A stretch of DNA of 64,000 bases from Candidatus Moraniibacteriota bacterium (GTDB lineage: Bacteria > Patescibacteriota > Minisyncoccia > Moranbacterales > JBBINP01). Position numbers and translations under genes: made by a program. A model generated the notes under the pieces. That model had not been told where the DNA came from. It made no database searches and saw only the letters and a program-made list of their open reading frames with translations. The stretch covers positions 1,430 through 65,429 of the forward strand of contig JBBINP010000001.1 of assembly GCA_037443825.1 (NCBI GenBank). The letters run 5' to 3'. Below, one piece after another: positions 3,588 to 58,773 of the stretch (position 1 is its first letter; every line of letters begins with the position of its first letter).

Positions 3588-3905
3588 AAAATTTGAAAAA
3601 ATATCAAATAAAACGCCCGACTTCTTGCTTTATTTTCTTATTGTCTGTATAATAGATAATGTTTGTCAACCCCGCGATTAAAAAATCGGCGGGGGTGTGG
3701 TGTCTTTACAAATAAAATTATCGCTTTTCCGGCATCCATTTAAAATAAAAATCATTGTTTTCTCGCCGAAAAAAAGGCGAGGCCGAGGGTGAATGGATTA
3801 TTTTTTTAAGAACAATTAAATATCTTTAATTAAAAAACTCATTGCAAATTTGCTTGTTTTCCAGACATTTAGCAAAACAAGAAATGTCAAATGAGGGTTG
3901 TTTTT

Positions 3906-6900
3906 ATGCTTTTACAACCGAAGACGCTTAAAGTCAGAGATTCTTTTGGCGCCGCATCTTCCCTTTCCAGGCGCAAATTTTTTAAAAAACGTTTAATAGT
4001 GTCTTTGCCGAATCTGATTGAAGCGCAAACCGGATCCTATCGCTGGTTTTTGGAAAAAGGACTCATGGAGTTGCTGGATGAAATTAATCCCATCGGCGAC
4101 TTTGCCGGCAAAGATCTGGAGCTTTCCATCTCTGATTATTATTTGGATGATCCCAAATATTCTGAAGCATTGGCGCGCGCCAAAAATGTTTCCTTTGAAG
4201 CCCCGCTTAGGGCCAAAGCGCGTCTCATTATCAAAAAAACCGGAGAAATAAAAGAACAGGAAATTTATTTAGGCGATTTTCCAATAATGACGGATCGCGG
4301 AACTTTCATTATTAATGGCGTGGAACGCGTGGTGGTTAGCCAACTTATTCGCAGTCCGGGGGTGTTTTTCACCATGGATTATCAAAAAGGCAAAAAACTT
4401 TTTGGAGCTAAAATCATTCCAAATCGCGGCGCTTGGCTGGAATTGGACACGGACTTGGATGGTGTGATTTCAGTTAAAATTGACAGGAAACGGAAAGTGC
4501 CCGCCACTTCTTTGTTGCGGGCGTTTGGTTATGGAACCGATGAAAAAATAAAAAACGCTTTCGCCGATGTTGACAAGGGGGAAATACAATACATTGAAGC
4601 GACACTGAATAAGGATCCGGCCAAAAATCAAGGCGATGGCTACAGGGAAGTTTACAAAAGAATACGTCCGGGAGATTTGGCGACTGAAGATAACGCCAAA
4701 CAAATGATAGATGCCATGTTTTTTAATTTTGAACGTTACGATTTCGGCAATGTGGGGCGCTATCGCCTTAACCAGCGATTGAATGTCAATCGCGATGATT
4801 CGGAAGAAAATCGGGTTTTGCTGGTGGATGATTTGATTCTTGTCATTAAGGAAATTATCGCTTTGAACAATAACCCTTTGGCGCAGGCGGATGATATTGA
4901 TCATCTGGGCAACAGGCGCGTCCGCTCCATGGGTGAATTGGTGCAAAATAAACTGCGCATCGGATTGGCTCGCTTGTCTCGCAATGTCAAAGACCGAATG
5001 AGTACTTGCGATGTTGCCACGGTATTGCCGGGACAATTGGTCAATTCGCGCCCGATCGCGGCGGCAATCAAAGAATTTTTTTCCAGTTCTCAACTCTCCC
5101 AGTTTATGGATCAGGTTAATCCATTGGCGGAACTGGAGCACAAGCGACGTTTTTCGGCTATGGGACCTGGCGGTCTCACGCGCGAACGCGCCGGTTTTGA
5201 AGTGCGCGACGTGCATCATTCCCACTACGGACGCATTTGTCCGGTGGAAACGCCGGAAGGTCCGAACATCGGCTTGGTCGGACATATGGCGAGTTACGCG
5301 CGCATAAACGACTATGGATTTTTAGAAACTCCTTATTTGAAAATAAGTCATTTTGTTGAAAATAAAAAAGACCGGCTGATCAACAGAATTTTAAATGAAA
5401 ATGTCGCCGGCATGAAAGCGGGAGAAAAAATCACTCCTGAAATCGCCGAGAAATTGACAACGGTTAAACAAAAAGAAATTCGCGTCAAGCCGTTTATTAT
5501 TCAAGAAGCGGAATATATGAATGCTACCGTGGAGGATCGCAATATTATCGCTCACGCGGGCATCAATACTGATGAAAATTACAATGTTACGGATGATTTT
5601 GTGGAAGCGCGGGTGAAAGGGCAGCCGGAAATTATTGAAGCGGAAAAATTGAATTATATTGATGTTTCCGCCAAACAATGCGTTTCCGTCGCGACCTCGC
5701 TCATTCCCTTTTTGGAACATGACGACGCCAATCGAGCATTGATGGGTTCTAATATGCAGCGCCAGGCGGTGCCTTGCATCGTTCCTCAGTCGCCGGTGGT
5801 GGGGACTGGCATTGAAGACAAGGCCGCGTCCGATTCGGGACAAGTCGTGCTGGCGGCGGAAGACGGAGAGGTTGTTGAAGTTGACGCCAGACATATCGTG
5901 ATTCGCGAAAAAGCCCCGATAGGATCCAAAAAAGATTATTATAACCGCGAATATCGCTTGCTTAATTTTGCCAAATCCAACGCTTTCACCAGCATGAGTC
6001 AGTCGCCACGAGTCAGTAAAGGACAGGTTGTCAAAAAAGGCGATCTGTTGGCGGACGGAGCGGCTACGGATAACGGAGAATTGGCTCTTGGCCAAAATGT
6101 TTTGGTGGCTTTTGCTCTTTGGGAGGGATTTAACTTTGAAGATGCCATCATAATTTCCGAGCGTCTTTTGCAGGATGACCGCTACAGTTCTATTCATATT
6201 GAAGATTTTTCCATTGACGTGCGCGACACCAAGCTCGGGCCGGAAGTGGTAACTCGCGATATTCCGAATATCGGAGAGGAGCGTCTCAGGAATCTTGACG
6301 AGACGGGTATTATTCACGTTGGCGCGGAAGTTTCTTCGGGCGACATTCTGGTTGGAAAAATAACTCCCAAGGGCGAAGGCGATCTCACTCCCGAAGAACG
6401 TCTTTTGCGCGCGATTTTTGGAGAAAAGTCCCGCGACGTAAAAGACAGCTCGCTCTATCTTCCGCACGGGGAACACGGCAAAGTGGTGGACATTAAAATT
6501 CTTTCCCGCGATCAGGGAGACAAGCTTTCAACCGGAGTCATTAAACAAATTCAAGTTTCAGTCGCCCAGCTTCGCAAAGTGGCCGTGGGCGATAAGTTGG
6601 CCGGGCGGCATGGCAACAAAGGAGTTATTTCCCGCATTGCGCCGGTGGAAGATATGCCGTATCTGGCCGACGGAATGCCGGTGGACGTTATTCTGAATCC
6701 GTTGGGAGTGGCCAGCCGTATGAATATCGGTCAAATTTTGGAAACTCATCTTGGTTGGGCGGCGAGCCGCCTTGGTTACACCGTCGCTTCTCCGGTGCTG
6801 GACGGAGTTAGTGAGGATGATATTAAACACGAATTGAAAAAGGCGGGTCTTCCAGACAGCGGAAAAGTCAAACTCATTGACGGTAAAACAGGGGAATATT

Positions 6901-7313
6901 TTAACGGAGAATCAACCGTCGGAATAATGTATATTATGAAACTCAATCATTTGGTGGATGACAAAATTCACATGCGTTCAATCGGTCCTTATTCTCTCAT
7001 CACTCAGCAACCATTGGGCGGCAAAGCCCAGTTTGGAGGACAACGCTTTGGAGAAATGGAAGTGTGGGCGCTGGAAGGGTACGGCGCGGCTCACACTCTT
7101 CAGGAAATGCTGACAATAAAATCAGACGATGTTTTGGGGCGATCTAAAGCTTATGAATCAATCATTAAGGGTGAAAAAATAAAGAGTCCCAATATTCCCG
7201 CTTCTTTTCATGTTTTGGTCAATGAACTGAAAGGTCTTTGTCTTAACATTGAGCTTGTTCAAAGCAAGATTCAAGATGAAAAAGAAGAGTCCAAAAAAGC
7301 GGATAAAAAATAA
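3906..7313 (+). CDS. rpoB: DNA-directed RNA polymerase subunit beta
   Basis: Unmistakable RpoB motifs throughout the 1135-1140 aa product, including PNLIEAQ, GTFIINGVERVVVSQL, and NMQRQAVP. The start was placed at ATG 3906 because a GAGGG motif lies 8 nt upstream; an alternative in-frame ATG is at 3891. Confidence 0.95.
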   Translation: MLLQPKTLKVRDSFGAASSLSRRKFFKKRLIVSLPNLIEAQTGSYRWFLEKGLMELLDEINPIGDFAGKDLELSISDYYLDDPKYSEALARAKNVSFEAPLRAKARLIIKKTGEIKEQEIYLGDFPIMTDRGTFIINGVERVVVSQLIRSPGVFFTMDYQKGKKLFGAKIIPNRGAWLELDTDLDGVISVKIDRKRKVPATSLLRAFGYGTDEKIKNAFADVDKGEIQYIEATLNKDPAKNQGDGYREVYKRIRPGDLATEDNAKQMIDAMFFNFERYDFGNVGRYRLNQRLNVNRDDSEENRVLLVDDLILVIKEIIALNNNPLAQADDIDHLGNRRVRSMGELVQNKLRIGLARLSRNVKDRMSTCDVATVLPGQLVNSRPIAAAIKEFFSSSQLSQFMDQVNPLAELEHKRRFSAMGPGGLTRERAGFEVRDVHHSHYGRICPVETPEGPNIGLVGHMASYARINDYGFLETPYLKISHFVENKKDRLINRILNENVAGMKAGEKITPEIAEKLTTVKQKEIRVKPFIIQEAEYMNATVEDRNIIAHAGINTDENYNVTDDFVEARVKGQPEIIEAEKLNYIDVSAKQCVSVATSLIPFLEHDDANRALMGSNMQRQAVPCIVPQSPVVGTGIEDKAASDSGQVVLAAEDGEVVEVDARHIVIREKAPIGSKKDYYNREYRLLNFAKSNAFTSMSQSPRVSKGQVVKKGDLLADGAATDNGELALGQNVLVAFALWEGFNFEDAIIISERLLQDDRYSSIHIEDFSIDVRDTKLGPEVVTRDIPNIGEERLRNLDETGIIHVGAEVSSGDILVGKITPKGEGDLTPEERLLRAIFGEKSRDVKDSSLYLPHGEHGKVVDIKILSRDQGDKLSTGVIKQIQVSVAQLRKVAVGDKLAGRHGNKGVISRIAPVEDMPYLADGMPVDVILNPLGVASRMNIGQILETHLGWAASRLGYTVASPVLDGVSEDDIKHELKKAGLPDSGKVKLIDGKTGEYFNGESTVGIMYIMKLNHLVDDKIHMRSIGPYSLITQQPLGGKAQFGGQRFGEMEVWALEGYGAAHTLQEMLTIKSDDVLGRSKAYESIIKGEKIKSPNIPASFHVLVNELKGLCLNIELVQSKIQDEKEESKKADKK

Positions 7314-7333
7314 CTTTTTTAGCCATAAACAAA

Positions 7334-10300
7334 ATGGAAAATATTACTAAAGTCAGTGATTTTGACAGCGTTCGTCTGAAATTAGCCAGTCCGGAAGAAA
7401 TTTTAAATTGGTCTCATGGAGAAGTAAGCAAACCGGAAACCATCAACTATCGCACTCAGCGGTATGAAAAGGAAGGCCTTTTTTGCGAAAAGATATTCGG
7501 TCCGGCTAAAGACTGGGAATGTTATTGCGGAAAATACAAACGCATCCGCTATAAAGGCATTGTTTGCGACAAGTGCGGCGTGGAAGTTACGCGTTCCATA
7601 GTACGACGTGAAAGACTGGGGCACATTAAATTGGCAGTGCCGGTTTCTCATATTTGGTTTTTGCGCGGAGTTCCGTCGCGTGTTGGTCTGGCCTTGGGAA
7701 TATCCGTTCAAGAAGCGGAGAAAGTTATTTATTTTTCTTCCTATATCATCAGCGAAGTGAATGAAAAAGAAAGGGAAAAAGCTCTGAGTCAGCTGGAACA
7801 GGAATACAAATCAAAACAAAAAGAAATACGCGACAAAAACGCCGGCAAGGACGATCGGGCGCTGGAGGCGATATTTGAAGAACTGAAAGATGCTTATCGT
7901 TCAACCAAAGATGAATTGAAAAACCTAAAGCCGTTGCGCATACTTTCGGAAATTGAATATTTCAATCTTTCCTCCCGTTTCGGACAAGTTTTTATGGCGG
8001 GAATCGGAGCGGAAACCATTCGCAAAATTCTGGAAAAAATCAATACCGACGAGATGATAAATAAAATAAGCGCGGAACTGGAAGAAAACAAGTCGGGAGA
8101 CAACAAAAAAGCGTTGCAGCGCATCAAACTTTTTCAGGGATTAAAAAAATCCAAAATCAAATTGGAATGGATGTTGCCGACTGTCATTCCTGTGATTCCT
8201 CCCGACTTGCGGCCGATGGTGGCGCTGGATGGCGGGCGTTTTGCCACCTCCGACCTCAACGATCTTTATCGCCGGATTATCAACCGCAACAATCGCCTGA
8301 AAAAATTAATTGAACTTGGAGCGCCGGAAGTGATAACGAGAAATGAAAAAAGAATGCTACAAGAAGCAGTGGACGCCCTTTTTGACAACAGCACCCGCCA
8401 TGGACAGGTTTCCGTGACGGCTTCCACTGGCCAAAAAAGAGCTCTGAAATCACTGGCTGATTCGCTTAAAGGCAAACAAGGACGTTTCCGCCAGAACTTG
8501 CTCGGAAAAAGAGTTGACTATTCGGGCCGCAGCGTGATTGTGGTGGGTCCGAAGCTTAAACTCCATCAAACCGGATTGCCGAAAAAAATGGCTCTGGAGC
8601 TTTTTAAGCCGTTTATTATCAACAAACTCATAGAGCGGGAATACGCGCACAATGTGCGCACGGCCGGAAGAATGGTGGATTCTGAAGCGGAGGAGGCGTA
8701 TGAAATTTTGGATGAAATAATTGAAAATCATTTTGTTTTGCTTAATCGCGCTCCGACTTTGCATCGTTTGTCCATTCAGGCTTTTCAGCCGGTTCTGATC
8801 GAAGGCAAGGCGATCCAGGTGCATCCGATGGTGTGTTCGGCGTTTAATGCCGATTTTGACGGAGATCAGATGGCGGTGCACGTTCCATTGACGGATCAGG
8901 CCCGCGAAGAAAGCGCTAATATTATGTTATCCGCCAAAAATCTTTTGAAACCGGCGACCGGCGATCCGATTACGACTCCTTCCCAGGATATCGTGTTGGG
9001 CATTTATTATCTTACTCATATTAAATCGGGCGCCAAAGGTGAAGGAAAAATTTTTTCCTCGGCGGACGAGGCGATTTTGGCGCATCAAAACAATTTTATT
9101 GACATCAATGCCGAAATTCAGGTTATGATCGGGAAAGAAATAAAGAAAACTTCGGCCGGACGGGTGATATTCAACGAGATGTTGCCCGAAGAACTGCGTT
9201 TTATCAACAACGAAATGATCAAAAAAGATCTCAAAACATTGATGGCCAAAGTGCTTGAAATAAAAGGACAGCAGGAAGCCGCCGAGCTGATTGATCATAT
9301 CAAGGATTTAGGTTTTCGCGCGGCAAGCAAATCCGGAATCAGCTGGGGAATGGACGATCTTACCGTTCCTGTCGAGAAAAAAGGAATTGTCGCCGCGGCT
9401 GAAAAAGAAGTGGAAACAATTAAAAACCAGTATAACATAGGACTTTTGACCAACGAAGAGCGTAAAAGCCGGATTATTGAAGTTTGGAATAACGCCAAAA
9501 ATAAAATTGCTGACGCGGTTAGCCGTTCTATTGATAAGGAGGGGCCGGTTTACTCAATGGTTTATTCCAAGGCGCGCGGATCGGAGTCGGTAGTGGTGCA
9601 GATGACCGGTATGAAAGGTTTGGTGGCTGGCCCGACGGGAGAAACAATTGAATTGCCGGTCAAGAGTTCGTTCAAGGAAGGTTTCAACGTGTTGGAATAT
9701 TTTATTTCCACTCATGGAGCCAGAAAAGGAATGGCCGATACGGCTTTGCGCACGGCAACAGCCGGTTATCTCACGCGTCGTTTGGTGGATGTGACTCAGG
9801 ATATTATTGTCCGGGAGGCGGATTGCAAGGAAAAAAACGGCGCTTATCTTTACAAAGCCGATTCGGATAAAATTGGACAGAGTTTTGCTTCCCGCGTAGA
9901 AGGGCGTTTTGCGCTGGAAGACATTGTTAATCCCAAAAACAAGAAAATCATTGCCGCCAAAGGCGAAATGATAGGCAAAGAGCAAGCCAATGAAATAGAA
10001 GAACTGAATATTGAAAAAATAAAAATTCGCAACGTGGTTTCTTGCAAAACCAGGCGCGGAGTATGCCAAAAATGTTATGGTAAAGATTTGGGGCGCAATG
10101 AGCTGGTTCAAATCGGTCAGGCGGTCGGCATTGTGGCGGCTCAAGCTATTGGCGAGCCGGGAACCCAGCTGACAATGCGCACCTTTCATGTCGGAGGAGT
10201 GGCCGGTTCGGATATTACGCAGGGTCTTCCGCGCGTGGAAGAAATTTTTGAAGCCCGTCCGCCCAAAGGCGAATCGGTGATTGCTGAAACAGACGGAAAA

Positions 10301-10927
10301 GTTACGGATGTTGTTAATGAAAATAAGAAAGTTATCACGATAAAAATTGAAAGCCAGGACAATGAAAAAACGGTGCGCGAATATCAGGTTTCAGCCGATA
10401 CCACGATCAGGGTGGAAAAAGGACAATTAATCGGCAAAGGAACCCAGCTTAACGAAGGCCACATAGACCTTAAAAAAATCTACGAGATTATGGGTATTGA
10501 AGAGTTTCATCGTTATATCCTCAGGGAAATCCAGGAAATTTATGCCGCGCAGGGCGAAGGCATCAATGACAAACACATTGAAATCATTATTAAACAAATG
10601 CTTTCCCGCATCAAAATTTCCGATCCCGGAAACACCTATCTTTTGCCGGGGGACATTGTTGAAAAGGACCAATTTGAAGAAGCTAACGCTGAGGCGAAAA
10701 AACAAGGCGGCAGGGCCGCGGCCGGCGATTGCGTGGTTATGGGAATTACCAAGGCGGCGCTTTCCACTGAATCTTTTCTTTCAGCGGCTTCCTTTCAGGA
10801 AACTACGCGGGTTTTGATCAACGCGGCGATTGTCGGCAAAGAAGACCGCTTGCGCGGACCCAAAGAAAACGTCATTATCGGACGCTTGATTCCGGCTGGA
10901 ACCGGTTTTCAAACCAGATCCGAGTAG
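7334..10927 (+). CDS. rpoC: DNA-directed RNA polymerase subunit beta'
   Basis: 1197 aa. A zinc finger at [21 protein letters not shown], the NADFDGD catalytic motif, and RpoC conservation throughout. Confidence 0.95.
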
Positions 10928-10981: not shown

Positions 10982-11066
10982 TTCAAAATTGACTATTTGA
11001 TTGCGTCAAGATATTATAAAAAAAGACTTTCGGCGGACGCGACGCCTGCCGATTTTGTGTCCGTAT

Positions 11067-11137
11067 CGGAGCGTGGTGTAATGGCAGCACGAGTGCTTTG
11101 GGAGCATTTAGTCCGAGTTCGACTCTCGGCGCTCCGA
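11067..11137 (+). tRNA. tRNA-Pro (anticodon UGG), CCA not encoded
   Basis: Manually folded. Acceptor CGGAGCG pairs with CGCTCCG (with a G-U); D-stem GTGT/GCAC; anticodon stem AGTGC/GCATT with loop TTTGGGA (UGG, G37); T-arm CCGAG-TTCGACT-CTCGG; discriminator A. The ORF 10943..11167 overlapping it is spurious. Confidence 0.8.
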
Positions 11138-20203: not shown

Positions 20204-21454
20204 ATGTTGTATAAATGTCTTCAAAAAAGCGATTTGCGGGCGTATCAGGCGGTTCTCGGAGAGATTTGCCGCCAGCGGGAGGGACTGGAAATGATTGCTT
20301 CGGAAAATTATGTTTCAGAAGCGGTTTTGGAAGCCATGGGGACGGTTTTTACAAACAAATACTCGGAAGGTTATCCGGGTCGCCGTTATTATGGCGGACA
20401 GATTTATACCGATGTCATTGAAAAGTTGGCTGTCGATCGCGCTAAAAAATTGTTTGGAGCAGAACATGTGAATGTCCAGCCGCTTTCCGGGGCGCCGGCC
20501 AACATGATTGCCTATAACGCCGTTTTGACGCCCGGCGATAAAGTTCTAGGAATGGACCTTTCGCACGGAGGGCATCTTACGCACGGGCATCCGGTAACAT
20601 TTTCGGCGCAAGTTTACAATTTCATAAGATATAAAACTGAAGCCGATGGCGAAATAGATTACGAAAAACTGGAAAAAATGGCGCTAAAAAACAAACCCAA
20701 ACTTATTTTAGCCGGTTTTTCCGCCTATACTCGCCAGTTGGATTATAAAAAATTTCAAATTATCGCCGAAAAATCCGGCGCTATTTCCATGATTGATATT
20801 GCTCATATCGCCGGTCTTATTGCTGGAAAAGCGCTGCCCAACCCTGTTCCTTATTTTGACATTGTGACAACCACGACGCACAAAACGCTCCGCGGTCCCA
20901 GGGGAGGAATGATTATGTGTAGAAAAAAATTCGCCTCTTCCGTTGATAAGGCGTGTTTTCCCGGTTTTCAGGGCGGTCCGCATATGCATCAGATTGTGGC
21001 CAAAGCCGTATGTTTTGGCGAAGCACTGAAACCATCCTTTCGCGCTTATGCCGGACAAGTTGTCAGGAACGCGAAAATATTGGAAAAAGAATTGCGCCGG
21101 CGCGGATTTAAAATAATGTTTGGCGGTACGGATAATCACATGGTTCTGGCGGATATTTTTGGAAGCAAGGGAATAAGCGGCAAGGAAGCGGAGGTTGCCC
21201 TGGATAAAATAGGAATCACGGTAAATAAAAATATAATTCCGGACGATTCGCGTCCGCCCATGGATCCGAGCGGCATTCGCATCGGCACGCCGGCGGCGAC
21301 TACTCGCGGAATGAGAGAAAAAGAAATGAAAATAATCGCTGGATGGATAAATGAAGCGGTTGAAAATCATAAAAACAATAAAGCGCTGCAACAAACAAAC
21401 AGGGAAGTAAAAAAGCTTTGCAAAAAATTTCCTTTATATTTAAGGTTAAAATAA
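20204..21454 (+). CDS. glyA: serine hydroxymethyltransferase
   Basis: IASENYVS, the PLP site TTTTHKTLRGPRGG, and overall SHMT conservation. Confidence 0.95.
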   Translation: MLYKCLQKSDLRAYQAVLGEICRQREGLEMIASENYVSEAVLEAMGTVFTNKYSEGYPGRRYYGGQIYTDVIEKLAVDRAKKLFGAEHVNVQPLSGAPANMIAYNAVLTPGDKVLGMDLSHGGHLTHGHPVTFSAQVYNFIRYKTEADGEIDYEKLEKMALKNKPKLILAGFSAYTRQLDYKKFQIIAEKSGAISMIDIAHIAGLIAGKALPNPVPYFDIVTTTTHKTLRGPRGGMIMCRKKFASSVDKACFPGFQGGPHMHQIVAKAVCFGEALKPSFRAYAGQVVRNAKILEKELRRRGFKIMFGGTDNHMVLADIFGSKGISGKEAEVALDKIGITVNKNIIPDDSRPPMDPSGIRIGTPAATTRGMREKEMKIIAGWINEAVENHKNNKALQQTNREVKKLCKKFPLYLRLK

Positions 21455-21460
21455 TCTTTT

Positions 21461-21955
21461 ATGGCTGAAGGAGAAAAATACCAAAGACTGACTTGGGATC
21501 AATATTTTTTAAATCTGGCGAAAGCGGTCGGCAAGAGAGGAACTTGCGATCGCGGGCGGGCGGGTTGCGCGATTGTGAAAGACAGGCGAATTTTGTCCAC
21601 TGGCTATGCCGGGTCGCCGATCGGCATTGTCCATTGCGATGATGTCGGGCATGAGATGCACACCGTGATTCATGAAAACGGCGAAAAAACGCGCCATTGC
21701 ATCCGCACGACGCACGCGGAACAAAACGCCATTGCCAACGCGGCCCGTTTCGGCGCGGCTTTGGAGGGCGCGACGCTCTATTGTCATATGACTCCCTGTT
21801 ACACTTGCGCCAAAATGATTATTAACGCCGGAATTAAAAGAGTGGTTTGCCACATGGATTATCACGCCGGAAAAAGATCCAAGGAAATTTTTCAAGAAGC
21901 GGGCGTGGCCTATGAATTGGTGAACGGCGAAATCCAAAAATACGACGATATGTAA
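21461..21955 (+). CDS. dCMP deaminase (cytidine/deoxycytidylate deaminase zinc-binding family)
   Basis: HAEQNAIANA...PCYTCAKMI zinc-binding motif (HAE...PC..C). Confidence 0.8.
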   Translation: MAEGEKYQRLTWDQYFLNLAKAVGKRGTCDRGRAGCAIVKDRRILSTGYAGSPIGIVHCDDVGHEMHTVIHENGEKTRHCIRTTHAEQNAIANAARFGAALEGATLYCHMTPCYTCAKMIINAGIKRVVCHMDYHAGKRSKEIFQEAGVAYELVNGEIQKYDDM

Positions 21956-22050
21956 ATCAATCGGCCATCATTTTTCAAACATTCGCGTCTATCGCGTTTT
22001 TTGCGTAATTGGAGCGCGCAAATTAATTATTGAAACAAAATATAAATTTT

Positions 22051-22605
22051 ATGCCCAATCTCATTCTGGGTCTGGCGGGGGAAATGGCTTCCGGCAAAGG
22101 CACGGCGGCTAAATATATTGAAAGCAAATACAACGGAAATTCCCACCGTTTTTCCACGCCCTTGCGCGATGTGCTGGATCGTTTGCGTTTGCAGCAAAAT
22201 CGTGAAAATCTGCAAAAACTTTCCACTTCAGTCCGCCAGGCGTTCGGGGAAGACATTTTGGCCAGAATAATTTTTCATGATGCCGAAAACGATCCCAAGG
22301 AAATCGCGGCTATTGACGGCGTGCGCCGATTGGGAGACATAAAATATTTGCGGAAACTGCCGCATTTTAAATTGATTTATATTAATACGGCAATGGAGAA
22401 ACGGTACGAACGCATTATCAGGCGGGCGGAAAACGCGGATGACCGGAACAAAACTTTTTTGGAATTTCAAAAAGAGCAAAATCAGGAATCGGAATCGCAA
22501 ATCCGCGGACTTGAGCCGATCTCCGATTTCATCGCGGACAACAACGGAACGTTGGAGGAATTTTTTAATCAACTTGACGTAATTGTTGAAAAGTGCCAAA
22601 GTTAA
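22051..22605 (+). CDS. P-loop nucleotide kinase, phage T4 Gp1 dNMP-kinase-like
   Basis: Walker A motif LGLAGEMASGKGT; collinear similarity (from memory) to T4 deoxynucleotide monophosphate kinase, including the C-terminal ADNNGTLEEFFNQL. The ORF track start at 22030 is a TTG; the ATG is at 22051. Confidence 0.5.
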   Translation: MPNLILGLAGEMASGKGTAAKYIESKYNGNSHRFSTPLRDVLDRLRLQQNRENLQKLSTSVRQAFGEDILARIIFHDAENDPKEIAAIDGVRRLGDIKYLRKLPHFKLIYINTAMEKRYERIIRRAENADDRNKTFLEFQKEQNQESESQIRGLEPISDFIADNNGTLEEFFNQLDVIVEKCQS

Positions 22606-22650
22606 AAATCTGGGAAGTGTTTTGTTTTGGCCTTTGAAAATTTAATAAGC

Positions 22651-23304
22651 ATGAAAGAAAAAAGCGTTAAAACAAAAGGAAAGTTTATTGTGCTGGAAGG
22701 CGGAGAAGGCAGCGGAAAGAGCAGTTGCATCCAATATCTGAAAAAAAAACTGGCCGGGCGCGACGATGTTGTTTTTACGCGCGAACCGGGCGGAACGCCG
22801 TTCGGATTGAAACTTCGCGAATTGTTGCTGCATAATCGAGAAAAAAGGTCCGGCCTGGCGGAGCTTATGGTTTTTTGCGCTGATCGGGCGGATCATTGCG
22901 AATCGTTCATTTATCCTTCCTTAAAAAAAGGAAAAATCGTGATTTGCGATCGTTTTGATTACTCAACTTACGCGTATCAAATTTTTGGCCGCCAGGAAAA
23001 AGCGCACGAGAACGATTTTAAAACAATAAACCGCGTGGCTAAAAATCCAGGGCGCGCGCGCGAAATCAAGCCCGATTTGGTCGTATTTCTGGATGTTGAT
23101 CCGAAAATCGGATTGACGAGAGTCAAAAATCGTCCCGACGACGACACGGTCTTTGATGCCGAGGAATTGTCTTTTCATCAAAGAGTGCGCGAGGGATATC
23201 GGAAACAAATTGGCTCGGAATGGATTGTTATTGACGCTGGCAAAAGAAAGGAGGATGTTCAGGAAGAAGTTTGGCGGGCGGCGCAAAAAATAATAAAAAA
23301 CTAA
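22651..23304 (+). CDS. tmk: thymidylate kinase
   Basis: FIVLEGGEGSGKSS P-loop, a DRFDYSTYAYQ-type motif, and the lid region. Confidence 0.85.
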   Translation: MKEKSVKTKGKFIVLEGGEGSGKSSCIQYLKKKLAGRDDVVFTREPGGTPFGLKLRELLLHNREKRSGLAELMVFCADRADHCESFIYPSLKKGKIVICDRFDYSTYAYQIFGRQEKAHENDFKTINRVAKNPGRAREIKPDLVVFLDVDPKIGLTRVKNRPDDDTVFDAEELSFHQRVREGYRKQIGSEWIVIDAGKRKEDVQEEVWRAAQKIIKN

Positions 23305-23318
23305 AAAGGAGGAAAAAT

Positions 23319-24722
23319 ATGATCAAAGTCAGATTAGTGTCCAACACAGATGCCGATCCGATAGTTTTAGCGCAATTCGGCGCCAATGTGTGCTACGACA
23401 AAGAAGCTGTTTTTGGGGAAAGCAATATTAATGTGGAAAAAGGCCTTTTTGACAAAGGTCATCACACTACTTTACAACACTGGTTCGCCACTTTTTTGGT
23501 GGAAGGCATCGCGGTTTCGGACATAACTTTCGGTTTTCACCTGACACACCCTTTTTATAATTCCGGACAAAGAAGCGGGCGGTATTGCGCGAGCATGTTC
23601 AATGACAAGGATTATGATGAAACAATCAAAAAATACGTAAGAAAATTTTGGCCGGAAATTTCCGAAATCCAGATGAAGAATGTCGCGGATTACGTGAAAT
23701 TCGGAGTGGAGACGTACAAAGCCAACATATCTCAGGCGGGCAATCTGACCCTTGATTACTTAATGAAAGAAAGGCCGAAAGTTCCGGCAGAAGTTTCGGC
23801 GGAACTGAAAAGAAAGGGTTTTAAGGGACACAAAGATAATGCTTTGAAAATCGCCCAGGAACAAATGAGGGTTTTTATTCCGACGATTTTTCCGACCGGA
23901 TTTCTGCACACGCTTAATCTGACGGCCCTGGCGGCTCTTTATGAAACTGCTTGGACGCCGGCGATGAAATACGCGACTGGCGAAATGGCGCGCCTGGTTT
24001 TGGAAAAATTTCCGCAACTTTCGTTTTTATTCAAAAAAAACAGAAGAAAAGACCATAAGTGGTCAATAAAAATTCCGCGCGTCAAACTTATTCCGATAGC
24101 CAGAAAACCTCGCCTGAAAAAAATGAAAATAAGCGGGGAAAGTAATTTTGTTTTTGCCGCCGCTGGCATGAAACACCCGCTGGATAAGCTGCATTTTAGT
24201 CCGGAAATGATGGACAATTCGGCAAGCGGCGCGGAAATGGAAATTGAAACGTCAGTGGCCACGATGGGACAGGATCAAAGACATAGAACGATTGGCAGAG
24301 GAAGCGCCAAATTTACCGGCGGTTTTTATATGCCGCCGATAATAAGCGAACTCGGTATGGAAAAGCAAGCGGAAATTTTGATGCGAAAATGGATAAATCT
24401 TTCCAGAGAAGTTCCAGAAACATTGGCGATGTGTCTGGCTCCCTACGGAGCGACTGTAAAATACAAAAAACGTGCTTCTTTCAACGCTTTTTTGCATGAG
24501 CAGGGCAAGCGGTCCTGTTGGCTGGCGCAAGAAGAAATCTATCACCTGAGCAGGTCCTTTCGTTTGGCTATTGCCAAAGAAAAAGGCAAAAACTCTCCGC
24601 TGCTGGCTATTTTTGATCCGCCCTGCCGCCAAACCGGCATTTGCGGAGAAGGCAGTCGTTATTGCGGGCGCGAGATCGGCGTTCGTTTGTCCGGCGATTA
24701 TTTTCCCAACAGAAAAATTTAA
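23319..24722 (+). CDS. thyX: flavin-dependent thymidylate synthase ThyX, tandem-duplicated (two ThyX folds in one 467-aa chain; N-terminal copy degenerate)
   Basis: N-terminal half aligns to ThyX (GHHTTLQHWFATFLVEG...SGQRSGRY), but RHR is replaced by THP and the R..AQ.EI motif is lost. C-terminal half retains QDQRHRTIGRGS and KRSCWLAQEEIYHLSRSFRLAIAKEK. The start was moved to ATG 23319, where an AAAGGAGG motif lies upstream; the ORF track starts at 23271 and overlaps tmk. Confidence 0.7.
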   Translation: MIKVRLVSNTDADPIVLAQFGANVCYDKEAVFGESNINVEKGLFDKGHHTTLQHWFATFLVEGIAVSDITFGFHLTHPFYNSGQRSGRYCASMFNDKDYDETIKKYVRKFWPEISEIQMKNVADYVKFGVETYKANISQAGNLTLDYLMKERPKVPAEVSAELKRKGFKGHKDNALKIAQEQMRVFIPTIFPTGFLHTLNLTALAALYETAWTPAMKYATGEMARLVLEKFPQLSFLFKKNRRKDHKWSIKIPRVKLIPIARKPRLKKMKISGESNFVFAAAGMKHPLDKLHFSPEMMDNSASGAEMEIETSVATMGQDQRHRTIGRGSAKFTGGFYMPPIISELGMEKQAEILMRKWINLSREVPETLAMCLAPYGATVKYKKRASFNAFLHEQGKRSCWLAQEEIYHLSRSFRLAIAKEKGKNSPLLAIFDPPCRQTGICGEGSRYCGREIGVRLSGDYFPNRKI

Positions 24723-24733
24723 AACAACCGCGC

Positions 24734-24777
24734 AAGCCGCCTGAAAATCGGGCGGCTTTATTTTTTGTTTTTTTGTG
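24734..24777 (+). terminator. rho-independent terminator after thyX (AAGCCGCC-loop-GGCGGCTT plus T-run)
   Basis: 8-bp stem followed by TTTATTTTTTGTTTTTTT. Confidence 0.65.
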
Positions 24778-24891: not shown

Positions 24892-25221
24892 ATGAATTTT
24901 GAAGAATATCAGAAAAAATCGCGAATAACCGTTAAATATCCGCGAGCCGGAAAAAATTTTGTTTATCCGACTCTGGGATTGGCGGGAGAAGCCGGCGAAG
25001 TGGCGGAAAAAATCAAAAAAGTCATCCGCGACAAAAATGGAATCATTGATCCGGAAACAAAGAAAGCGATTAAAAAGGAATTGGGCGACGTGCTTTGGTA
25101 TGTTTCCCAGCTGGCGACGGAATTGAACGCGTCTCTTAATGAGATCGCCGAGAACAACATTAAAAAACTGTGTGACAGATTGGAGCGGGGTAAGTTAAAC
25201 GGAGAAGGAGACGACAGATAG
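24892..25221 (+). CDS. MazG-like nucleoside triphosphate pyrophosphohydrolase
   Basis: LGLAGEAGEVAEKIKK and ELGDVLWYV are MazG/NTP-PPase helices carrying the EExxE-type metal-binding pattern. Confidence 0.65.
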   Translation: MNFEEYQKKSRITVKYPRAGKNFVYPTLGLAGEAGEVAEKIKKVIRDKNGIIDPETKKAIKKELGDVLWYVSQLATELNASLNEIAENNIKKLCDRLERGKLNGEGDDR

Positions 25222-28743: not shown

Positions 28744-31743
28744 TTACTCTCCCCACACGCCCGCTAAAATTTCCTCAATTCGCTTTTGGGCTTCGGATTT
28801 AAGCAGTCGCACGCCTTCCAGCGCCTGCATTTGCTTGTCTAGTTTCTCCACGATTTGGTGTTGGGTTTCGAGGGGTGGAATTAGAAAAAATATGTTTTTT
28901 AGATCTTTTTCATAGATCGCTGCAATATTTGTTGAGGCTTTTTTTATTCCATTTAGCTGATCGGAAACATAATCAGACAAAAAACAATAATTCAAATAAT
29001 CGGGCAATATTTCAGGTTTTGTTTTGATTCTCATCAACATGTGATTAAACAAAACCGGTCTTTCATTATTTTTCTTAAATATTGCCGTTTTTCCTACTAA
29101 TTCAAAGCTGTTACGTGTATTAAACAGAAGGTCATTATCGTCCAGTTTAAATTTGTCTATTTCTTCATTACTAGCTTCAATCGTAACAATACTTGCTTGC
29201 TCAATAAAACCTGACTGAATATTGTTCATTTTGATATATTCAACATCTCCCTTGTCTGTTTCCTCTTTTGTTTTTACTAAGCCAATTTGGGTTGATTCAA
29301 CAATATTTTTAAAAAACTTTTTTTCACCGATAAACGAATGACTACTAATTGAAAAATTATCTTCAATCCTCTCCGCTCCATCAATAATCTGCTTTTGCTT
29401 TTCGATTTTTTCCACGATTTCGTTTTGGACTTCAAGCGGCGGGAGGGGAATTTGTAATGCTAAAATTTCTTCGGTTTTATAGGTTTCGCGACCGGTTGAA
29501 TCTTCAATGCCCAGTTTCGCAAAAGCCGGTTTTAAAAAAATCAACAAATAGTCAGGATTGATTTTTGTATCGTCAATCCTAAACGGAACAAAAGTACCCG
29601 TTGAAACATAATTTTTATCGGAAATCGCAAACGAGCCATTCTGAGTATGCATTTTCCCAATAACAAGATCATCTTTTTGAATAAGAAGTCGTTTTTTGAC
29701 TTTTAGCTCTACCCCCAAACATTCGTTGTTTGTAGAAATAGTATTTGTTTTTGTTGAGATTGTTGGCTCGCAATATATTTTTTCATCTTCAATTTCAATT
29801 TTTCTTTCATCCGACAAATCAATCAAAAATGTGCTCAACGGTTCAAATGTAAATTGCTTTGTTTCTTTCAAAATCTCAAAAAGCTTGGCAAGTTTTTCAT
29901 CTCCTTCTAAAGCATTTTTCTCCAATTTACTCAGAAATTCCCTTGCAATATCCATTTGCAAAGCGTCTTTGGGATTAAAAGAAGCGAGGATTTGTAAAAC
30001 GGTTTTTGGTTCAGCTTTTTGTAATTCTTGATAGCGTTTATCAATTTTTGAGCCGTTTTTTATTTCCACACCTTTTAGTGTTTCTTGCCAATCCTTGATC
30101 TGCTCAATGCTTAAATTACTGCGATAGTTTTGCAAGTTAAAATGGTAGCTATGCGCTTTTTCAATGGCTTTGGCAACTTCGTTGTCAATTTGTCCTTCCA
30201 CGATATTGTCAAACTGCCACAATTTCTCGTCATACATTTCCTTGCTGATTTTTTTGCTTTCCAGTTTTTTATCTAATTGTTCAATAAGTTTTTCTCGTTT
30301 TTTAGCGTTTTTCTCTTTGGTTTTTTCGCTAACCTCTTTTTTTATTCGCTCGGCAATGCGCGGATCAAGGGTTTCGATCTGTTCTTTGGAAATGCAAAAA
30401 CTGTGTTTGGTGTCTTGTGGCTTTTTACTTTGCTTAACTTCTGCAAATAGTTTTAAGAGTTCAGGAATTTGACTGCTTTCAATCGGTTTTCTGTTGGTTC
30501 CCATACTAAAGCCGTCATTTTCTATTTTGTAATACCAAACAAAATCTGTCGGTTCACCTTTTTCAAAATATAAAATCGAAGTTTTGGCTCCTTGCCCGCT
30601 CTTGCTCACAAACACGCCTTGCGGAAGTGAGATAACTGCTCGCAGATTGGTTTCATTCAGAAGTATTTTACGAAGCGCGCAAGCGCTATTTTGCCCCCAA
30701 GTTAAAAAGCCCTCGGAAACAACTACGGCACAACGCCCCTTATCTTTGAGTAAATCAAACATAAGTTTTACGAACAAAATCGTCGTTTCCGATTCCTTGG
30801 AGTATTCTTCCCAAACATTTGGATATGCCGGCTGGTCTCTCTCAGCACCAAAAGGGGGATTGGCAATTACCACGCTTTTGCTTCCGCCGTCTCTGGACGG
30901 ATCGTACATTTTGAGACTGTCGCCTTGATCAATGTTGTGCGGATTAAGTCCGCGAATATACATATTCACCGCCGCCATTTTGCGAATCATTCCCGCATAT
31001 TCAATTCCACCAATTCCGGTGCGATAAAACATATTGGCGATATTTTCGGCAGGAAATTGCCTTGTTTGGCGCGCTTTTTCTATCACATAATCATACGCAT
31101 CAAAAAGAAAACCAGCCGTACCGCAAGCGGGATCAAAAATCGTGTCCGTAAAATCCGGGTCAACCATCTCAACCATCATTTGGCGAATATGGTCTGGCGT
31201 TCGGTAAAGTCCCAAATCTTTTGTTCCGCCGGTTTCAGAAAGAGCGGATTCAATCGCATCGCCGAGTAAATCAGTTTTTAAAATATATTTTTCGTCAATT
31301 TCGTTTACCATGCCGATTACTTCAGCGATCACTCCGCCTTTGACATTATTGGTAAAGTTGGAATTGGCAAAAACTTCTTCCATTAAAACCAACTGATCTT
31401 GCATTTTTTTGGGTAGATTTCCGATGACGACTGTTCGCGCTTTGGAAAGAATGGTGGAGTAAAACGGAAAAATATTTTTATTGAGTTCTGATAAAATTTG
31501 CTCACCGTTCAAAGAAAGCAAATGCGAAAAAAGCAGGCGATAATTTTCACCCGAGAAAAGCTCGCGCAGCGGCTTGAATGATTCGTCTTGTTTGAGTTTG
31601 GCTTCGAAAATGCGAAGTAAACAGAGCTCAATAATATATTCAACACGCATAACCGGCGTGCCGGCAGGACGAAGCTTATTGTGAAGCCTTTTTAGAATAT
31701 TATTTGTTTCGCTATCTGCGTAATGTGTTGTTGATCTGCCCAT
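28744..31743 (-). CDS. Type I restriction-modification HsdM-HsdS fusion (N6-adenine MTase domain + coiled-coil linker + two target-recognition domains)
   Basis: MTase motifs DPACGTAGFL (motif I) and VVIANPPFG (motif IV). A long charged coiled-coil spans about aa 430-640. Two TRD modules each end with the conserved HsdS helices (LPPLEVQNEIVEKIE and IPPLETQHQIVEKLD). Confidence 0.8.
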   Translation of the reverse strand: MGRSTTHYADSETNNILKRLHNKLRPAGTPVMRVEYIIELCLLRIFEAKLKQDESFKPLRELFSGENYRLLFSHLLSLNGEQILSELNKNIFPFYSTILSKARTVVIGNLPKKMQDQLVLMEEVFANSNFTNNVKGGVIAEVIGMVNEIDEKYILKTDLLGDAIESALSETGGTKDLGLYRTPDHIRQMMVEMVDPDFTDTIFDPACGTAGFLFDAYDYVIEKARQTRQFPAENIANMFYRTGIGGIEYAGMIRKMAAVNMYIRGLNPHNIDQGDSLKMYDPSRDGGSKSVVIANPPFGAERDQPAYPNVWEEYSKESETTILFVKLMFDLLKDKGRCAVVVSEGFLTWGQNSACALRKILLNETNLRAVISLPQGVFVSKSGQGAKTSILYFEKGEPTDFVWYYKIENDGFSMGTNRKPIESSQIPELLKLFAEVKQSKKPQDTKHSFCISKEQIETLDPRIAERIKKEVSEKTKEKNAKKREKLIEQLDKKLESKKISKEMYDEKLWQFDNIVEGQIDNEVAKAIEKAHSYHFNLQNYRSNLSIEQIKDWQETLKGVEIKNGSKIDKRYQELQKAEPKTVLQILASFNPKDALQMDIAREFLSKLEKNALEGDEKLAKLFEILKETKQFTFEPLSTFLIDLSDERKIEIEDEKIYCEPTISTKTNTISTNNECLGVELKVKKRLLIQKDDLVIGKMHTQNGSFAISDKNYVSTGTFVPFRIDDTKINPDYLLIFLKPAFAKLGIEDSTGRETYKTEEILALQIPLPPLEVQNEIVEKIEKQKQIIDGAERIEDNFSISSHSFIGEKKFFKNIVESTQIGLVKTKEETDKGDVEYIKMNNIQSGFIEQASIVTIEASNEEIDKFKLDDNDLLFNTRNSFELVGKTAIFKKNNERPVLFNHMLMRIKTKPEILPDYLNYCFLSDYVSDQLNGIKKASTNIAAIYEKDLKNIFFLIPPLETQHQIVEKLDKQMQALEGVRLLKSEAQKRIEEILAGVWGE

Positions 31744-31746
31744 AAC

Positions 31747-34113
31747 TTATACCTTAAATGTTGATTGTAATTCCTCATAAACTTGAGGAAAGCGGTTATC
31801 AAAAACCTGATTTACTTCTTCATAATCCGCGCCAATAATTCTTATAAACACCGGATTATTAAATACTTCTTGCGGTGAAATGCGTTTTTTCTCGGCTATG
31901 TTTGCCGAAACAATATCTTTCATGTCGCGCAAGATTTGAATTTGCTTGTCGTTGAAATTATATGTCTTGATGTATGAATCAAAACCTCTTTCAACTCGTT
32001 CTTTCGGAGTAGGAATTTTTTTGATTTTTAAAGCGTGTAAAAAAAAGTCCCAAATTGATCCCTGTTCAAAATCGTAGGCTTTTTGCAATTGTCCCTCATC
32101 AAGATAAACGTTTGGGTTGCGCGACCAATTTTTAATCTCGTCAATTTCTTGCTCGCTTGGCTCGTAATTTTCATTCGATTTAACTTTCTCTTTAATCTCT
32201 ACGATTTCCGGAGCTTTATCCTTAGTGATCTCTTCTTCAAAAATTTCTTTGGCTTTTTCAATAGGGATATTGTCTATTACTTTTATGCTGTCGCCGTGAA
32301 GGTAAACCCTCTGAATAAGGTGCGCGGGATCTGGATTGTCAATTATACCTGGATTTACCCCACCCCCTCCGCCTCCACTGCCTCCAGTTTGTATTCCTGT
32401 TACAACTTTTTTGTTTTCCTTTACAGTGCCCTTGCCGTTATCTTCCATTTTTTTGCACAGACCAACAAAATCCAAAACTTTAAAACTGAATTTTCCAGTT
32501 TTCGGATCAAGACGAGTTCCACGCCCGAGCATTTGAATATACTTTCCGACTGATTTTGTAAGATTGGCAAAAGCAATATAGCGAACGCAAGGAATATCAA
32601 CGCCGGTACTCATAATATCCACAGAAACAGCGATAAACGGCTTATGATTTTGATCTTTGAACCATTTTTTAAACGTTGCGTTAAGCTCGTCGTTTTCTGA
32701 AATAATAGCTTCTGCATAGCGTGGTGATAATTCATCCTCGCTTGTTTTAAATACTTGATTGATTGCTTTGACGAGTTGAACGGCATGAGCTTGGCTGACG
32801 CCAAACAAAATTACCTTCTCGCCATATTCTGTATTGGCTTTCAGTTCTTCTGCAATTCTTAAGCAATTATCCCAAGCGATAAATTTTCTATTTAGTTGTT
32901 CTAGTTTTATCTTTTTTTCTTGATCCAGCTTAACCAATTCTTCGGTTTTCAAATCAAAGTAGTGATCAAAATTTATGCCAACCTCTCGCGCTGTTTTGGT
33001 AAGTTCTGTTTCAATGGATAAAACTTGATAGGGAGCCAAAAAACCCTCATCAATGCCACGCGTAAGGTCAAATTGATAATCTGGCTCGCCGGTTTCACAG
33101 CCAAAAAGCCGATAAGTATCCAAAATCGCCAAATCTTCATCTGGAATTTCTTTACCTTTTTTAGCAACCGCCGTTCTTGGAGTGGCGGTCAATCCAACAC
33201 GAGGGCACAAGAAATGATCAAAAATCAATTTGCGATTAATATTGATAGATCGGTGACATTCATCAACAATAATCAAATCATAAAAACTGTTTGGAATGTT
33301 TTGATAAATATTCTCTAGCGTGTCAATAACGACGACATGAATTTGTGTGTTTTTGTATTGTTTGTAATTGCCCGAAGTAATACGGATAGCAGAGTATTCC
33401 TTACTAATAAGTGAAAACCCGTCGTTGATAACTTGCTCGGCAAGCATAACTCTATCAACCACAAACAAAACACGCTTTGCCATGTTGTATTCAAATAGTG
33501 CTTTTGTGAAAGCAGCCATTGTTCTTGTCTTTCCAAGACCAGTTGCCATATGAACAAGCATTTTTTGTTTACCCTCTTTGTATTTTTGAATAAGCGCTTG
33601 AATACATTCGGTTTGATAATAGGTTTCTTTACCACAGCTTGGATTTATTCCACCCGCAATACCTTTATCAATCGTGATTACTCGATCAAGATTTATTTTT
33701 CTTGCCTGCTCGATTTTAAGTTGCATTTCTTCAAGTGTCATCAAGCTGTTGACTTGGCGAAATTCTCCCGCTTCAAGCCCTTTCCATTCGGTGTCATAAA
33801 AAAGGGTTCGCTCCGGAGAACAAGCATACAAAAAACGAGGTTTTAAAACTGAAGCGTAAAGTGTACGAAGTTTTGTTAGCGCCTTTTTCTCGTCTTCAAA
33901 TTTATTCTCAAAAATAGCAACAATATTATGATTCAAATCCAATAGCGTAATGTCCGGTTTTACACTTTCTCGACCTTCAAATAGCTTTTGTTGTTCTGGT
34001 GTAAGTGAATATTCTTGTTGGTACAACAAAGTATCGCCGACTTTCCAGCCGAGTTTTTTTAGGTCTTCAATTATTTTCAGATCTGTGTCCGTTGCTTCGT
34101 TAATTCTAGGCAT
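31747..34113 (-). CDS. Type I restriction enzyme R subunit-like (N-terminal PD-(D/E)xK nuclease + SF2 helicase)
   Basis: Nuclease motif KPDITLL...IFENK. Helicase motifs HMATGLGKT (Walker A), IIVDECHRS (Walker B), LTATP and QMLGRGTR. A poly-Gly tract (GGSGGGGGG) is present. Confidence 0.8.
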   Translation of the reverse strand: MPRINEATDTDLKIIEDLKKLGWKVGDTLLYQQEYSLTPEQQKLFEGRESVKPDITLLDLNHNIVAIFENKFEDEKKALTKLRTLYASVLKPRFLYACSPERTLFYDTEWKGLEAGEFRQVNSLMTLEEMQLKIEQARKINLDRVITIDKGIAGGINPSCGKETYYQTECIQALIQKYKEGKQKMLVHMATGLGKTRTMAAFTKALFEYNMAKRVLFVVDRVMLAEQVINDGFSLISKEYSAIRITSGNYKQYKNTQIHVVVIDTLENIYQNIPNSFYDLIIVDECHRSININRKLIFDHFLCPRVGLTATPRTAVAKKGKEIPDEDLAILDTYRLFGCETGEPDYQFDLTRGIDEGFLAPYQVLSIETELTKTAREVGINFDHYFDLKTEELVKLDQEKKIKLEQLNRKFIAWDNCLRIAEELKANTEYGEKVILFGVSQAHAVQLVKAINQVFKTSEDELSPRYAEAIISENDELNATFKKWFKDQNHKPFIAVSVDIMSTGVDIPCVRYIAFANLTKSVGKYIQMLGRGTRLDPKTGKFSFKVLDFVGLCKKMEDNGKGTVKENKKVVTGIQTGGSGGGGGGVNPGIIDNPDPAHLIQRVYLHGDSIKVIDNIPIEKAKEIFEEEITKDKAPEIVEIKEKVKSNENYEPSEQEIDEIKNWSRNPNVYLDEGQLQKAYDFEQGSIWDFFLHALKIKKIPTPKERVERGFDSYIKTYNFNDKQIQILRDMKDIVSANIAEKKRISPQEVFNNPVFIRIIGADYEEVNQVFDNRFPQVYEELQSTFKV

Positions 34114-34562: not shown

Positions 34563-34652
34563 TGGCGGAGGGTACAGGATTTGAACCTGTGAGGGGATTT
34601 CTCCCCAACCGCATTTCGAGTGCGGCGCATTAAACCGCTCTGCCAACCCTCC
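34563..34652 (-). tRNA. tRNA-Ser (anticodon CGA), class II with long variable arm, CCA encoded
   Basis: Reverse complement reads GGAGGGT..., with anticodon stem CCGCA/TGCGG, loop CTCGAAA, variable arm TGGGGAGAAATCCCCTCAC, and T-arm AGGTTCAAATCCTGT, ending ACCCTCC-G-CCA. Confidence 0.8.
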
Positions 34653-58735: not shown

Positions 58736-58773
58736 GTCAGCGATTTTTAATGATTATGTTTTTTTGGCGCGTG

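Follow-up and report, generated by a model that had tools for sequence, protein, structure and literature searches.

ThyX, the flavin-dependent thymidylate synthase, is an antibacterial target lacking in humans, and what is known of its mechanism comes from homotetramers of single-fold subunits. How catalysis is organized when two such folds lie in one polypeptide is the question raised by a thyX gene from a Candidatus Moraniibacteriota bacterium, located at positions 23319..24722 (+ strand) of a 64,000-nucleotide stretch of contig JBBINP010000001.1 (hereafter the window). The encoded protein has 467 amino acids, about twice the length of canonical ThyX, and a first-pass annotation made from the DNA letters had described it as a dead N-terminal ThyX fold fused to a motif-complete C-terminal one. 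The analysis reported here bears out a single covalent protein of two ThyX folds and argues for a different division of labor, in which the halves are probably complementary, both being needed and neither complete.

A single uninterrupted gene

The gene lies within one open reading frame that runs uninterrupted on the + strand from a TTG at 23271 to the stop codon at 24720-24722, and neither a stop codon nor a frameshift separates the halves. Because a Shine-Dalgarno sequence read from the DNA (AGGAGG, 23307..23312, + strand) lies six bases upstream of ATG 23319 and homologues begin alike, sharing the N-terminal start MIKV(K)L, this ATG is the true start, as first annotated, and the product comprises 467 residues plus the stop. 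A protein database search returned 402 homologues, the best 120 of which are all colinear with the window protein, 441-491 residues long and 47-66% identical to it; the named members among these 120 are Patescibacteria (Parcubacteria, Moranbacteria and Paceibacteria).

These results bear directly on the possibility that the double length reflects a frameshift or assembly error joining two adjacent thyX genes. Nothing in the window favors such an error, and the one observation pointing that way comes from a related metagenome contig (L083, FWPV01054661.1) in which the gene is split in two at a tandem repeat. Between positions 900 and 1000 of that contig a short segment occurs in tandem, with the peptide MFKAEKRRKEDLVFNLPKSFILTKS present twice, producing apparent N-half and C-half reading frames. 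We read this split, the source of the short 'half' protein P0182, as an assembly artefact that could be mistaken for a natural split gene. A second short 'half' protein, P0186, is a contig-edge fragment, and no natural two-gene version was found among these two short proteins examined. Against a joining error stand the continuous reading frame, the hundreds of independent colinear full-length homologues from different projects, the origin of both short proteins and the predicted local distance difference test (pLDDT) values above 80 for the region between the halves in the whole-protein structure prediction. The artefact reading is effectively refuted, and its residual probability is negligible.

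A fusion of two ThyX folds

The window protein is a ThyX by fold, Pfam match and gene context. The whole sequence matches Pfam Thy1 (PF02511) in two stretches at 55.9 bits, above the gathering score of 24.8 bits. The N-terminal fold (residues 1-245; 23319..24053, + strand) is the more readily recognized, scoring 41.6 bits (E 1.5e-10) on Pfam Thy1 by itself and matching Thermotoga maritima ThyX by hhalign with a probability of 92% (E 6e-7); an N half unlike ThyX, the outcome that the first-pass annotation named as fatal to its own reading, is not what these searches returned. The fold is further delineated by alignment to ThyX chains of the PDB using a hidden Markov model (HMM) and by conservation counts. 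The C-terminal fold (residues 246-425; 24054..24593, + strand), in which the N-terminal helices are trimmed, scores 18.1 bits alone on Pfam Thy1 (E 0.0025), under the 24.8-bit cut-off, and a PDB sequence search with the window protein matched ThyX weakly and via the N half only.

Because its ThyX identity was the weak point, the C half was modeled separately (AF2, residues 246-467, 34 sequences), which gave a pLDDT of 85. A Foldseek search with this model returned matches at E ~1e-6, probability 1.00 and a template modeling score of ~0.54, and 50/50 among the matches listed were ThyX-family chains, comprising ThyX and its homologue PolB. In the whole-protein prediction, the predicted template modeling score is 0.90, so the packing of the two halves against each other is predicted with confidence. 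The structural check proposed by the first-pass annotation was thereby run, and both halves adopt the ThyX alpha/beta fold in the predicted models.

Catalytic residues are divided between the halves

Canonical homotetrameric ThyX is known from T. maritima (TM0449; 1o26), Mycobacterium tuberculosis (Rv2754c; 2af6), Helicobacter pylori (3n3y) and PBCV-1 (4fzb). To locate the catalytic residues, the N half was mapped by HMM alignment to PDB ThyX chains and by hhalign to T. maritima ThyX; the C-half mapping is anchored by the RHR, FY-x-PP and R-x5-Q-E-E-I motifs and agrees with the fold match. Conservation is given below for the subfamily of the window protein (62 species genomes) and for the wider two-domain class (142 full-length sequences spanning it, window protein included), and canonical residues carry T. 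maritima numbers unless stated otherwise.

The N half carries S86-G87-R88-Y89 (23574..23585, + strand) at the position of the canonical S88-G-R90-Y91 substrate or 'lid' loop, so that the SGRY motif quoted in the first-pass annotation is indeed present at 86-89. Within the subfamily, S86 is found in 62/62, R88 in 60/62 and Tyr or Phe at position 89 in 61/62, and across the class both S86 and R88 reach 142/142. The equivalent of R147 is R184 (23868..23870, + strand), which lies in an IAQEQMR motif and is invariant at both levels (62/62 and 142/142). H48 and T50, the equivalents of H53 and T55, are likewise each found in 62/62 subfamily members, with H48 in 142/142 class-wide. N81, Q84 and E181 occupy the positions of N85, E86 and E144. 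In the N half the equivalents of H53, S88, R90, E144 and R147 are invariant, and that of T55 and that of Y91, which is Tyr or Phe, come close to it; this is not the picture of a simply dead N half.

What the N half lacks is equally consistent. Q75 is not kept, and the position of the canonical R78-H79-R80 is taken by G72-F73-H74 (23532..23540, + strand; G72 in 62/62 of the subfamily, H74 in 62/62 and in 142/142 of the class). The earlier statement that THP replaces RHR is thus right about the loss of RHR and wrong about its replacement, since the HMM alignment places G72-F73-H74 there. The loss of the arginine of the R...AQ.EI region, also claimed at first, is confirmed by A211 at the R174 position (58/62 in the subfamily).

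The C half shows the reciprocal pattern. It holds Q318 (equivalent to Q75), which is invariant, and the RHR motif R321-H322-R323 (24279..24287, + strand), each residue of which is found in 62/62 subfamily members and, class-wide, in 142/142 (R321 and R323) or 141/142 (H322). The dUMP-activating arginine motif R-x5-Q-x-E-I is present in the C half and absent from the N half (dUMP being deoxyuridine monophosphate); it takes the form R398-S-C400-W-L-A-Q-E-E-I (24510..24539, + strand), with R398 equivalent by alignment to R174 of T. maritima and R199 of M. tuberculosis (62/62 and 142/142) and Q404 to Q180. H393 is also found in 62/62 and is invariant class-wide. The two C-half motifs quoted in the first-pass annotation are in place, RHRTIGRGS starting at R321 and KRSCWLAQEEI at K397. 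The description 'motif-complete' holds for RHR and R...AQ.EI and fails for the rest of the site: E86 to R90 fall in a five-residue deletion that removes the S-G-R-Y loop, and the R147 position is M371, which varies among M, T, L, A and Q across the 62 species. C-half positions matching H53 and T55 are not conserved class-wide, and no C-half residue was assigned to N85 or E144, nor any N-half residue to Q180. Nowhere does one fold contain the contiguous RHR-x(7-8)-S and R-Y motif; only the two halves together make it up.

This split extends across the long class. Its N halves carry S-x-R-Y/F and the R147 equivalent and no RHR, and its C halves carry Q-x-Q-RHR and R-x-C-x3-Q-E-E-I, with little or no variation at these residues in the 142 sequences.

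A proposed composite active site

In solved ThyX tetramers, each active site is built from three subunits (PMC6514825). Subunit A supplies the RHR motif, which binds dUMP and the phosphate and ribityl groups of flavin adenine dinucleotide (FAD), together with M. tuberculosis R199 (T. maritima R174), likewise binding FAD and dUMP; subunit B supplies Ser71 (T55) and Arg190 (R165) to FAD, and subunit C supplies S105, R107 and Y108 (S88, R90 and Y91) (PMC6514825). In the T. maritima enzyme, R174 activates dUMP, and the S88A, R90A and Y91A substitutions greatly slow the methylene-transfer step (PMC8316439).

By the alignments above, the 'A' residues of the long form survive in the C half only, and the 'C' residues, with the 'B' residue Ser71/T55 and its neighbor H53, in the N half only. 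Because the two retained sets come from different subunits of one canonical site, the halves appear complementary and not one live and one dead. We propose that an ancient internal duplication placed two ThyX folds in one chain, packed as an intramolecular pseudo-dimer, and that the catalytic residues came to be divided between them. The C half would give the subunit A residues (equivalents of Q75, R78-H79-R80 and R174), holding FAD and activating dUMP, and the N half would give those of the neighboring subunits, namely the S88-G-R90-Y91 loop from C and H53/T55 from B; the R147 equivalent is assigned to subunit C by assumption. With the residues divided in this way, a complete site would require a C half to be in contact with N halves.

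The simplest assembly would be a homodimer of fusions arranged like the tetramer, with C halves at A and D and N halves at B and C, and with the complete sites being A,B,C and D,C,B. We infer that two polypeptides would form a pseudo-tetramer in which two FAD/dUMP sites are complete and two are degenerate, giving one composite site per polypeptide, and two per dimer as opposed to four per canonical tetramer. We regard this two-site complementary architecture as likely. It also makes the halved number of active sites suggested in the first-pass annotation a likely consequence of the fusion, by inference from the residue split.

The confinement of RHR and R...AQEEI to the C half, and the lack of RHR and R174 in the N half, would also be expected if the C half were a self-sufficient, motif-complete ThyX with sites formed from C halves alone, and the N half a dead scaffold or a FAD/folate-binding module. 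That alternative leaves unexplained the loop and R147, which are missing from the C half and retained class-wide in the N half. The loop residues matter for the kinetics of T. maritima ThyX (PMC8316439) and come from a different subunit than RHR in the solved structures (PMC6514825), and if the N half were a dead scaffold, one would not expect S86, R88 and R184 to persist in 142/142 sequences. The retention of Tyr or Phe at position 89, H48 and T50 points the same way, and we consider a self-sufficient C half very unlikely.

Several observations weigh against the complementary reading and were set beside it. The equivalent of T. maritima R165 (M. tuberculosis R190) is missing from both halves, being T/S/I/V at position 202 in the N half (T202 in the window protein) and N389 in the C half, and FAD binding must therefore differ in detail. 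The protein scores just 44 bits on TIGR02170, the NCBIfam thyX equivalog, under its cut-off of 87.9 bits. The C-half residue mapping is a colinear but low-confidence hhalign alignment combined with the fold match, and the T. maritima sequence used for the hhalign mapping was checked only in part against the HMM alignment. Compared with that single T. maritima sequence, the C half gave an hhalign probability of 0.2, and a C-half HMM retrieved no ThyX from the PDB sequences, the relationship appearing by fold search alone. The two halves likewise show no similarity to each other by hhalign (probability 0.5%), and BLASTP between them returned just an 18-residue chance match. Because the halves are not detectably alike, the duplication is deduced from each half's own match to ThyX; their undetectable similarity and the failure of the C-half profile to retrieve ThyX from the PDB indicate that the duplication is old and the C half strongly diverged.

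With these points counted, the balance of evidence favors the window gene being a functional long two-domain flavin-dependent thymidylate synthase whose catalytic residues are split between its halves. If so, it would offer a clean example from nature of an oligomeric enzyme that subfunctionalised after an internal duplication, and findings on inhibitors and mechanism made with the short form could not be carried over blindly to the two-domain form, for which no solved structure covers both halves.

An invariant cysteine tail

Beyond the C-terminal fold lies a tail (residues 426-467; 24594..24719, + strand), defined by conservation, in which C436, C442, E444 and C449 are invariant and which reads PPC-x5-C-x-E-G-x-R-Y-C-G-R in the subfamily. 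Three of the four class-wide cysteines lie in this tail (C436, 24624-24626; C442, 24642-24644; C449, 24663-24665; all + strand; each 142/142), and the fourth, C400 (24516-24518, + strand; 141/142), is two residues past the catalytic R398. Across the class, the four cysteines are accompanied by a tail pattern C-x(5-11)-C-x-E-G-x2-3-C-G, in which the first pair is separated by x5 in 110/120 members of the subfamily and by x11 in 119 matches from the 528-residue relatives. No canonical ThyX chain aligned across the tail in the HMM and hhalign alignments, and its pLDDT is 72-85 in the whole-protein prediction. A Pfam match to Chitin_bind_1 on the tail was below cut-off (E 0.14-0.26) and was dismissed as compositional.

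As a first guess, the four cysteines form a structural zinc site tying the tail to the active-site helix; they may alternatively hold an iron-sulfur cluster or form disulfides. The stronger combined claim, that the long form is obligately asymmetric with 2/4 pseudo-sites catalytic and that the four cysteines bind a metal by the active-site helix, is in our view unlikely as a whole. Were the metal a redox-active iron-sulfur cluster, it could serve as an electron entry point reducing FAD from a ferredoxin-like donor instead of NAD(P)H (reduced nicotinamide adenine dinucleotide or its phosphate), and such an entry point, if true, would bear on what reduces ThyX in cells.

A large two-domain class

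The first-pass annotation had called the covalent pseudo-dimer an unusual solution and had proposed a search for other double-length ThyX proteins. These were found in large numbers, which makes the architecture a very common one. Run against 1.84 billion representatives, a profile matched 826 50%-identity representatives at E <= 1e-3, among them distant full-length two-domain proteins of 440-528 residues, and a search with one relative (P0258, 522 residues) matched at least 4,595 90%-identity clusters with a modal length of 528 residues. The latter clusters are annotated 'FAD-dependent thymidylate synthase' and come from Omnitrophica, Thermoanaerobaculia, Deltaproteobacteria and archaeal metagenome-assembled genomes. 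All six of the two-domain relatives tested (459-528 residues) match TIGR02170 in two stretches, and 5/6 pass its cut-off at 98.6-120.5 bits, the full range being 71-120 bits. By sequence, the window protein is a member of a compact (~455 residues), more diverged subfamily of this very large class.

When one genome per GTDB species was scanned, 117 genomes proved to encode a relative, and the best 80 of these loci are mostly from Patescibacteria. Also among those 80 are gut and rumen metagenome-assembled genomes labeled Alphaproteobacteria or Rickettsiales (L063-L080), with copies of the compact, Patescibacteria-type protein 37-42% identical to the window protein and without dCMP deaminase and Tmk neighbors; examples are 'Candidatus Enterousia' (L080) and two Rickettsiales assemblies (L069, L073). 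The gene could have moved horizontally between lineages with small genomes, or the assemblies could carry a wrong taxonomic label. Phage genomes searched with the window protein gave no match.

Compared with canonical homotetrameric ThyX, the window protein has two folds per chain, with its catalytic residues each confined to one half, so that there is at most one complete site per polypeptide and not one per fold. It further differs in lacking the R165/R190 equivalent, in falling under the TIGR02170 cut-off, in the N-terminal trimming of its C half and in an extra tail with invariant cysteines. With the ~528-residue members of the class (P0258, P0266 and P0252) it has in common the two-domain architecture, the motif split and the four invariant cysteines; in those members the N half carries HSH-PFYN-x-Q-SQRY and KKAQE-ARY-LP and the C half SQ-QRHR and RLC-NAQEEI. 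The window subfamily is ~70 residues shorter, with a shorter linker and C-half start, has x5 in place of x11 between its first tail cysteines, and has V/I in place of the arginine equivalent to M. tuberculosis R87 (V66 in the window protein; arginine in 58/142 class-wide). It is also more diverged from canonical ThyX, with 44 as opposed to 71-120 bits on TIGR02170.

Among known ThyX folds with additions or altered specificity, Thermus thermophilus Thy1 with its extra C-terminal domain (6j61) and the UMP/dUMP (uridine and deoxyuridine monophosphate) methylase PolB (4p5a) were both retrieved by the fold searches. Each has one ThyX fold per chain, without the reciprocal motif split and without the cysteine tail. 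A further lead is the ThyX of Chlamydia trachomatis (CT632), which is ~529 residues long, like the modal length of the long class, and is a candidate member of that class. It reportedly is an active FAD- and NADPH-dependent thymidylate synthase (Griffin et al. 2005, J Biol Chem). Should it prove to be a member, its relationship to the window protein would be distant. An NADPH-oxidation assay with the chlamydial enzyme has been reported (PMC3498832), and early phylogenies left chlamydial ThyX sequences out because they lacked sequence identity (PMC6171736).

In the open-access literature searched, recent ThyX phylogeny papers included, we came across no account of the two-domain form, of the residue split or of the cysteines; this absence is weak evidence because the search covered few subscription papers. 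The gene itself is ordinary and its class already annotated, and the sharing of work between the halves seems little described. Of the ThyX sequences from the environment, a very large part are of the two-domain form, which takes in the whole Patescibacteria subfamily and, if it belongs to the class, the chlamydial enzyme; the window gene belongs to a known, very common kind, and its mechanistic reading is of modest interest.

Gene neighborhood and predicted function

The thyX gene stands at the end of a cluster for the synthesis of deoxythymidine mono- and triphosphate (dTMP/dTTP) on the + strand (20204..23304). By Pfam matches, this cluster comprises glyA, encoding serine hydroxymethyltransferase (SHMT; 20204-21454), a deoxycytidine monophosphate (dCMP) deaminase gene (21461-21955), a gene for a 191-residue P-loop kinase resembling deoxynucleoside monophosphate kinases (22030-22605; AAA_17, with DNMK just below cut-off) and the thymidylate kinase gene tmk (22627-23304). 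The P-loop kinase gene usually lies just after that for dCMP deaminase in related loci, and its product is probably a second deoxynucleoside monophosphate kinase. Directly 3' of the thyX stop codon, a GC-rich hairpin and T-run read from the sequence (GCCGCC ... GGCGGC followed by TTTATTTTTT; 24736..24766, + strand) form a putative intrinsic-terminator-like element. Immediately downstream of thyX is a gene for a 109-residue MazG-type nucleotide pyrophosphohydrolase (24892-25221, + strand), with gatB beyond it. The MazG-type protein could be a pyrophosphatase acting on deoxyuridine or deoxycytidine triphosphate and feeding dUMP, and a gene of this type was found near the thyX homologue in just 5/80 loci. 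Within 6 kb of the homologue in the best 80 loci, dCMP deaminase occurs in 25/80, the P-loop kinase in 22/80, GatB in 20/80, Tmk in 18/80 and SHMT in 10/80.

The cluster fits dTMP synthesis and supports this role for the window protein. The adjacent dCMP deaminase would provide dUMP, the adjacent SHMT methylene-tetrahydrofolate, and the dTMP formed would pass to the adjacent thymidylate kinase. A ThyX-fold flavoenzyme can also act in other chemistry, and the window protein might accordingly be a PolB-like UMP/dUMP methylase or a hydroxymethylase and not the thymidylate synthase of the cell. Against this are the equivalents of the dUMP-binding and catalytic residues, present once per polypeptide with the exception of M. 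tuberculosis R87; the SHMT, dCMP deaminase/Tmk and MazG neighbors, in an arrangement that recurs in other genomes; and the two-domain relatives nearer canonical ThyX that pass the thyX equivalog cut-off. A non-exhaustive scan of the window genes, moreover, found no thyA or second thyX. We judge other chemistry quite unlikely and infer that the window protein very likely has thymidylate synthase activity, making it the predicted thymidylate synthase of this organism.

Other features of the window

Overall, the window consists of ordinary chromosomal DNA from a bacterium with a small genome, in keeping with a Patescibacteria origin, with rpoB and rpoC upstream of the thyX cluster (3891-10927, + strand). 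Downstream, on the opposite strand, lies a type I restriction-modification unit (28744-34113, - strand) encoding a 999-residue fusion of an N6 methylase with specificity (Methylase_S) domains and a 788-residue HsdR-like helicase/nuclease. Because its GC content (0.35-0.40) is below that of the flanks and its GC skew is reversed relative to them, this region may be an acquired island. A transfer-messenger RNA gene is located at 58773-59182 (- strand), with the predicted tag peptide ANLYSKVKAAFARAMTPAFAPALA, and genes for tRNA-Pro(TGG) and tRNA-Ser(CGA) are found at 11066-11141 and 34563-34652, respectively.

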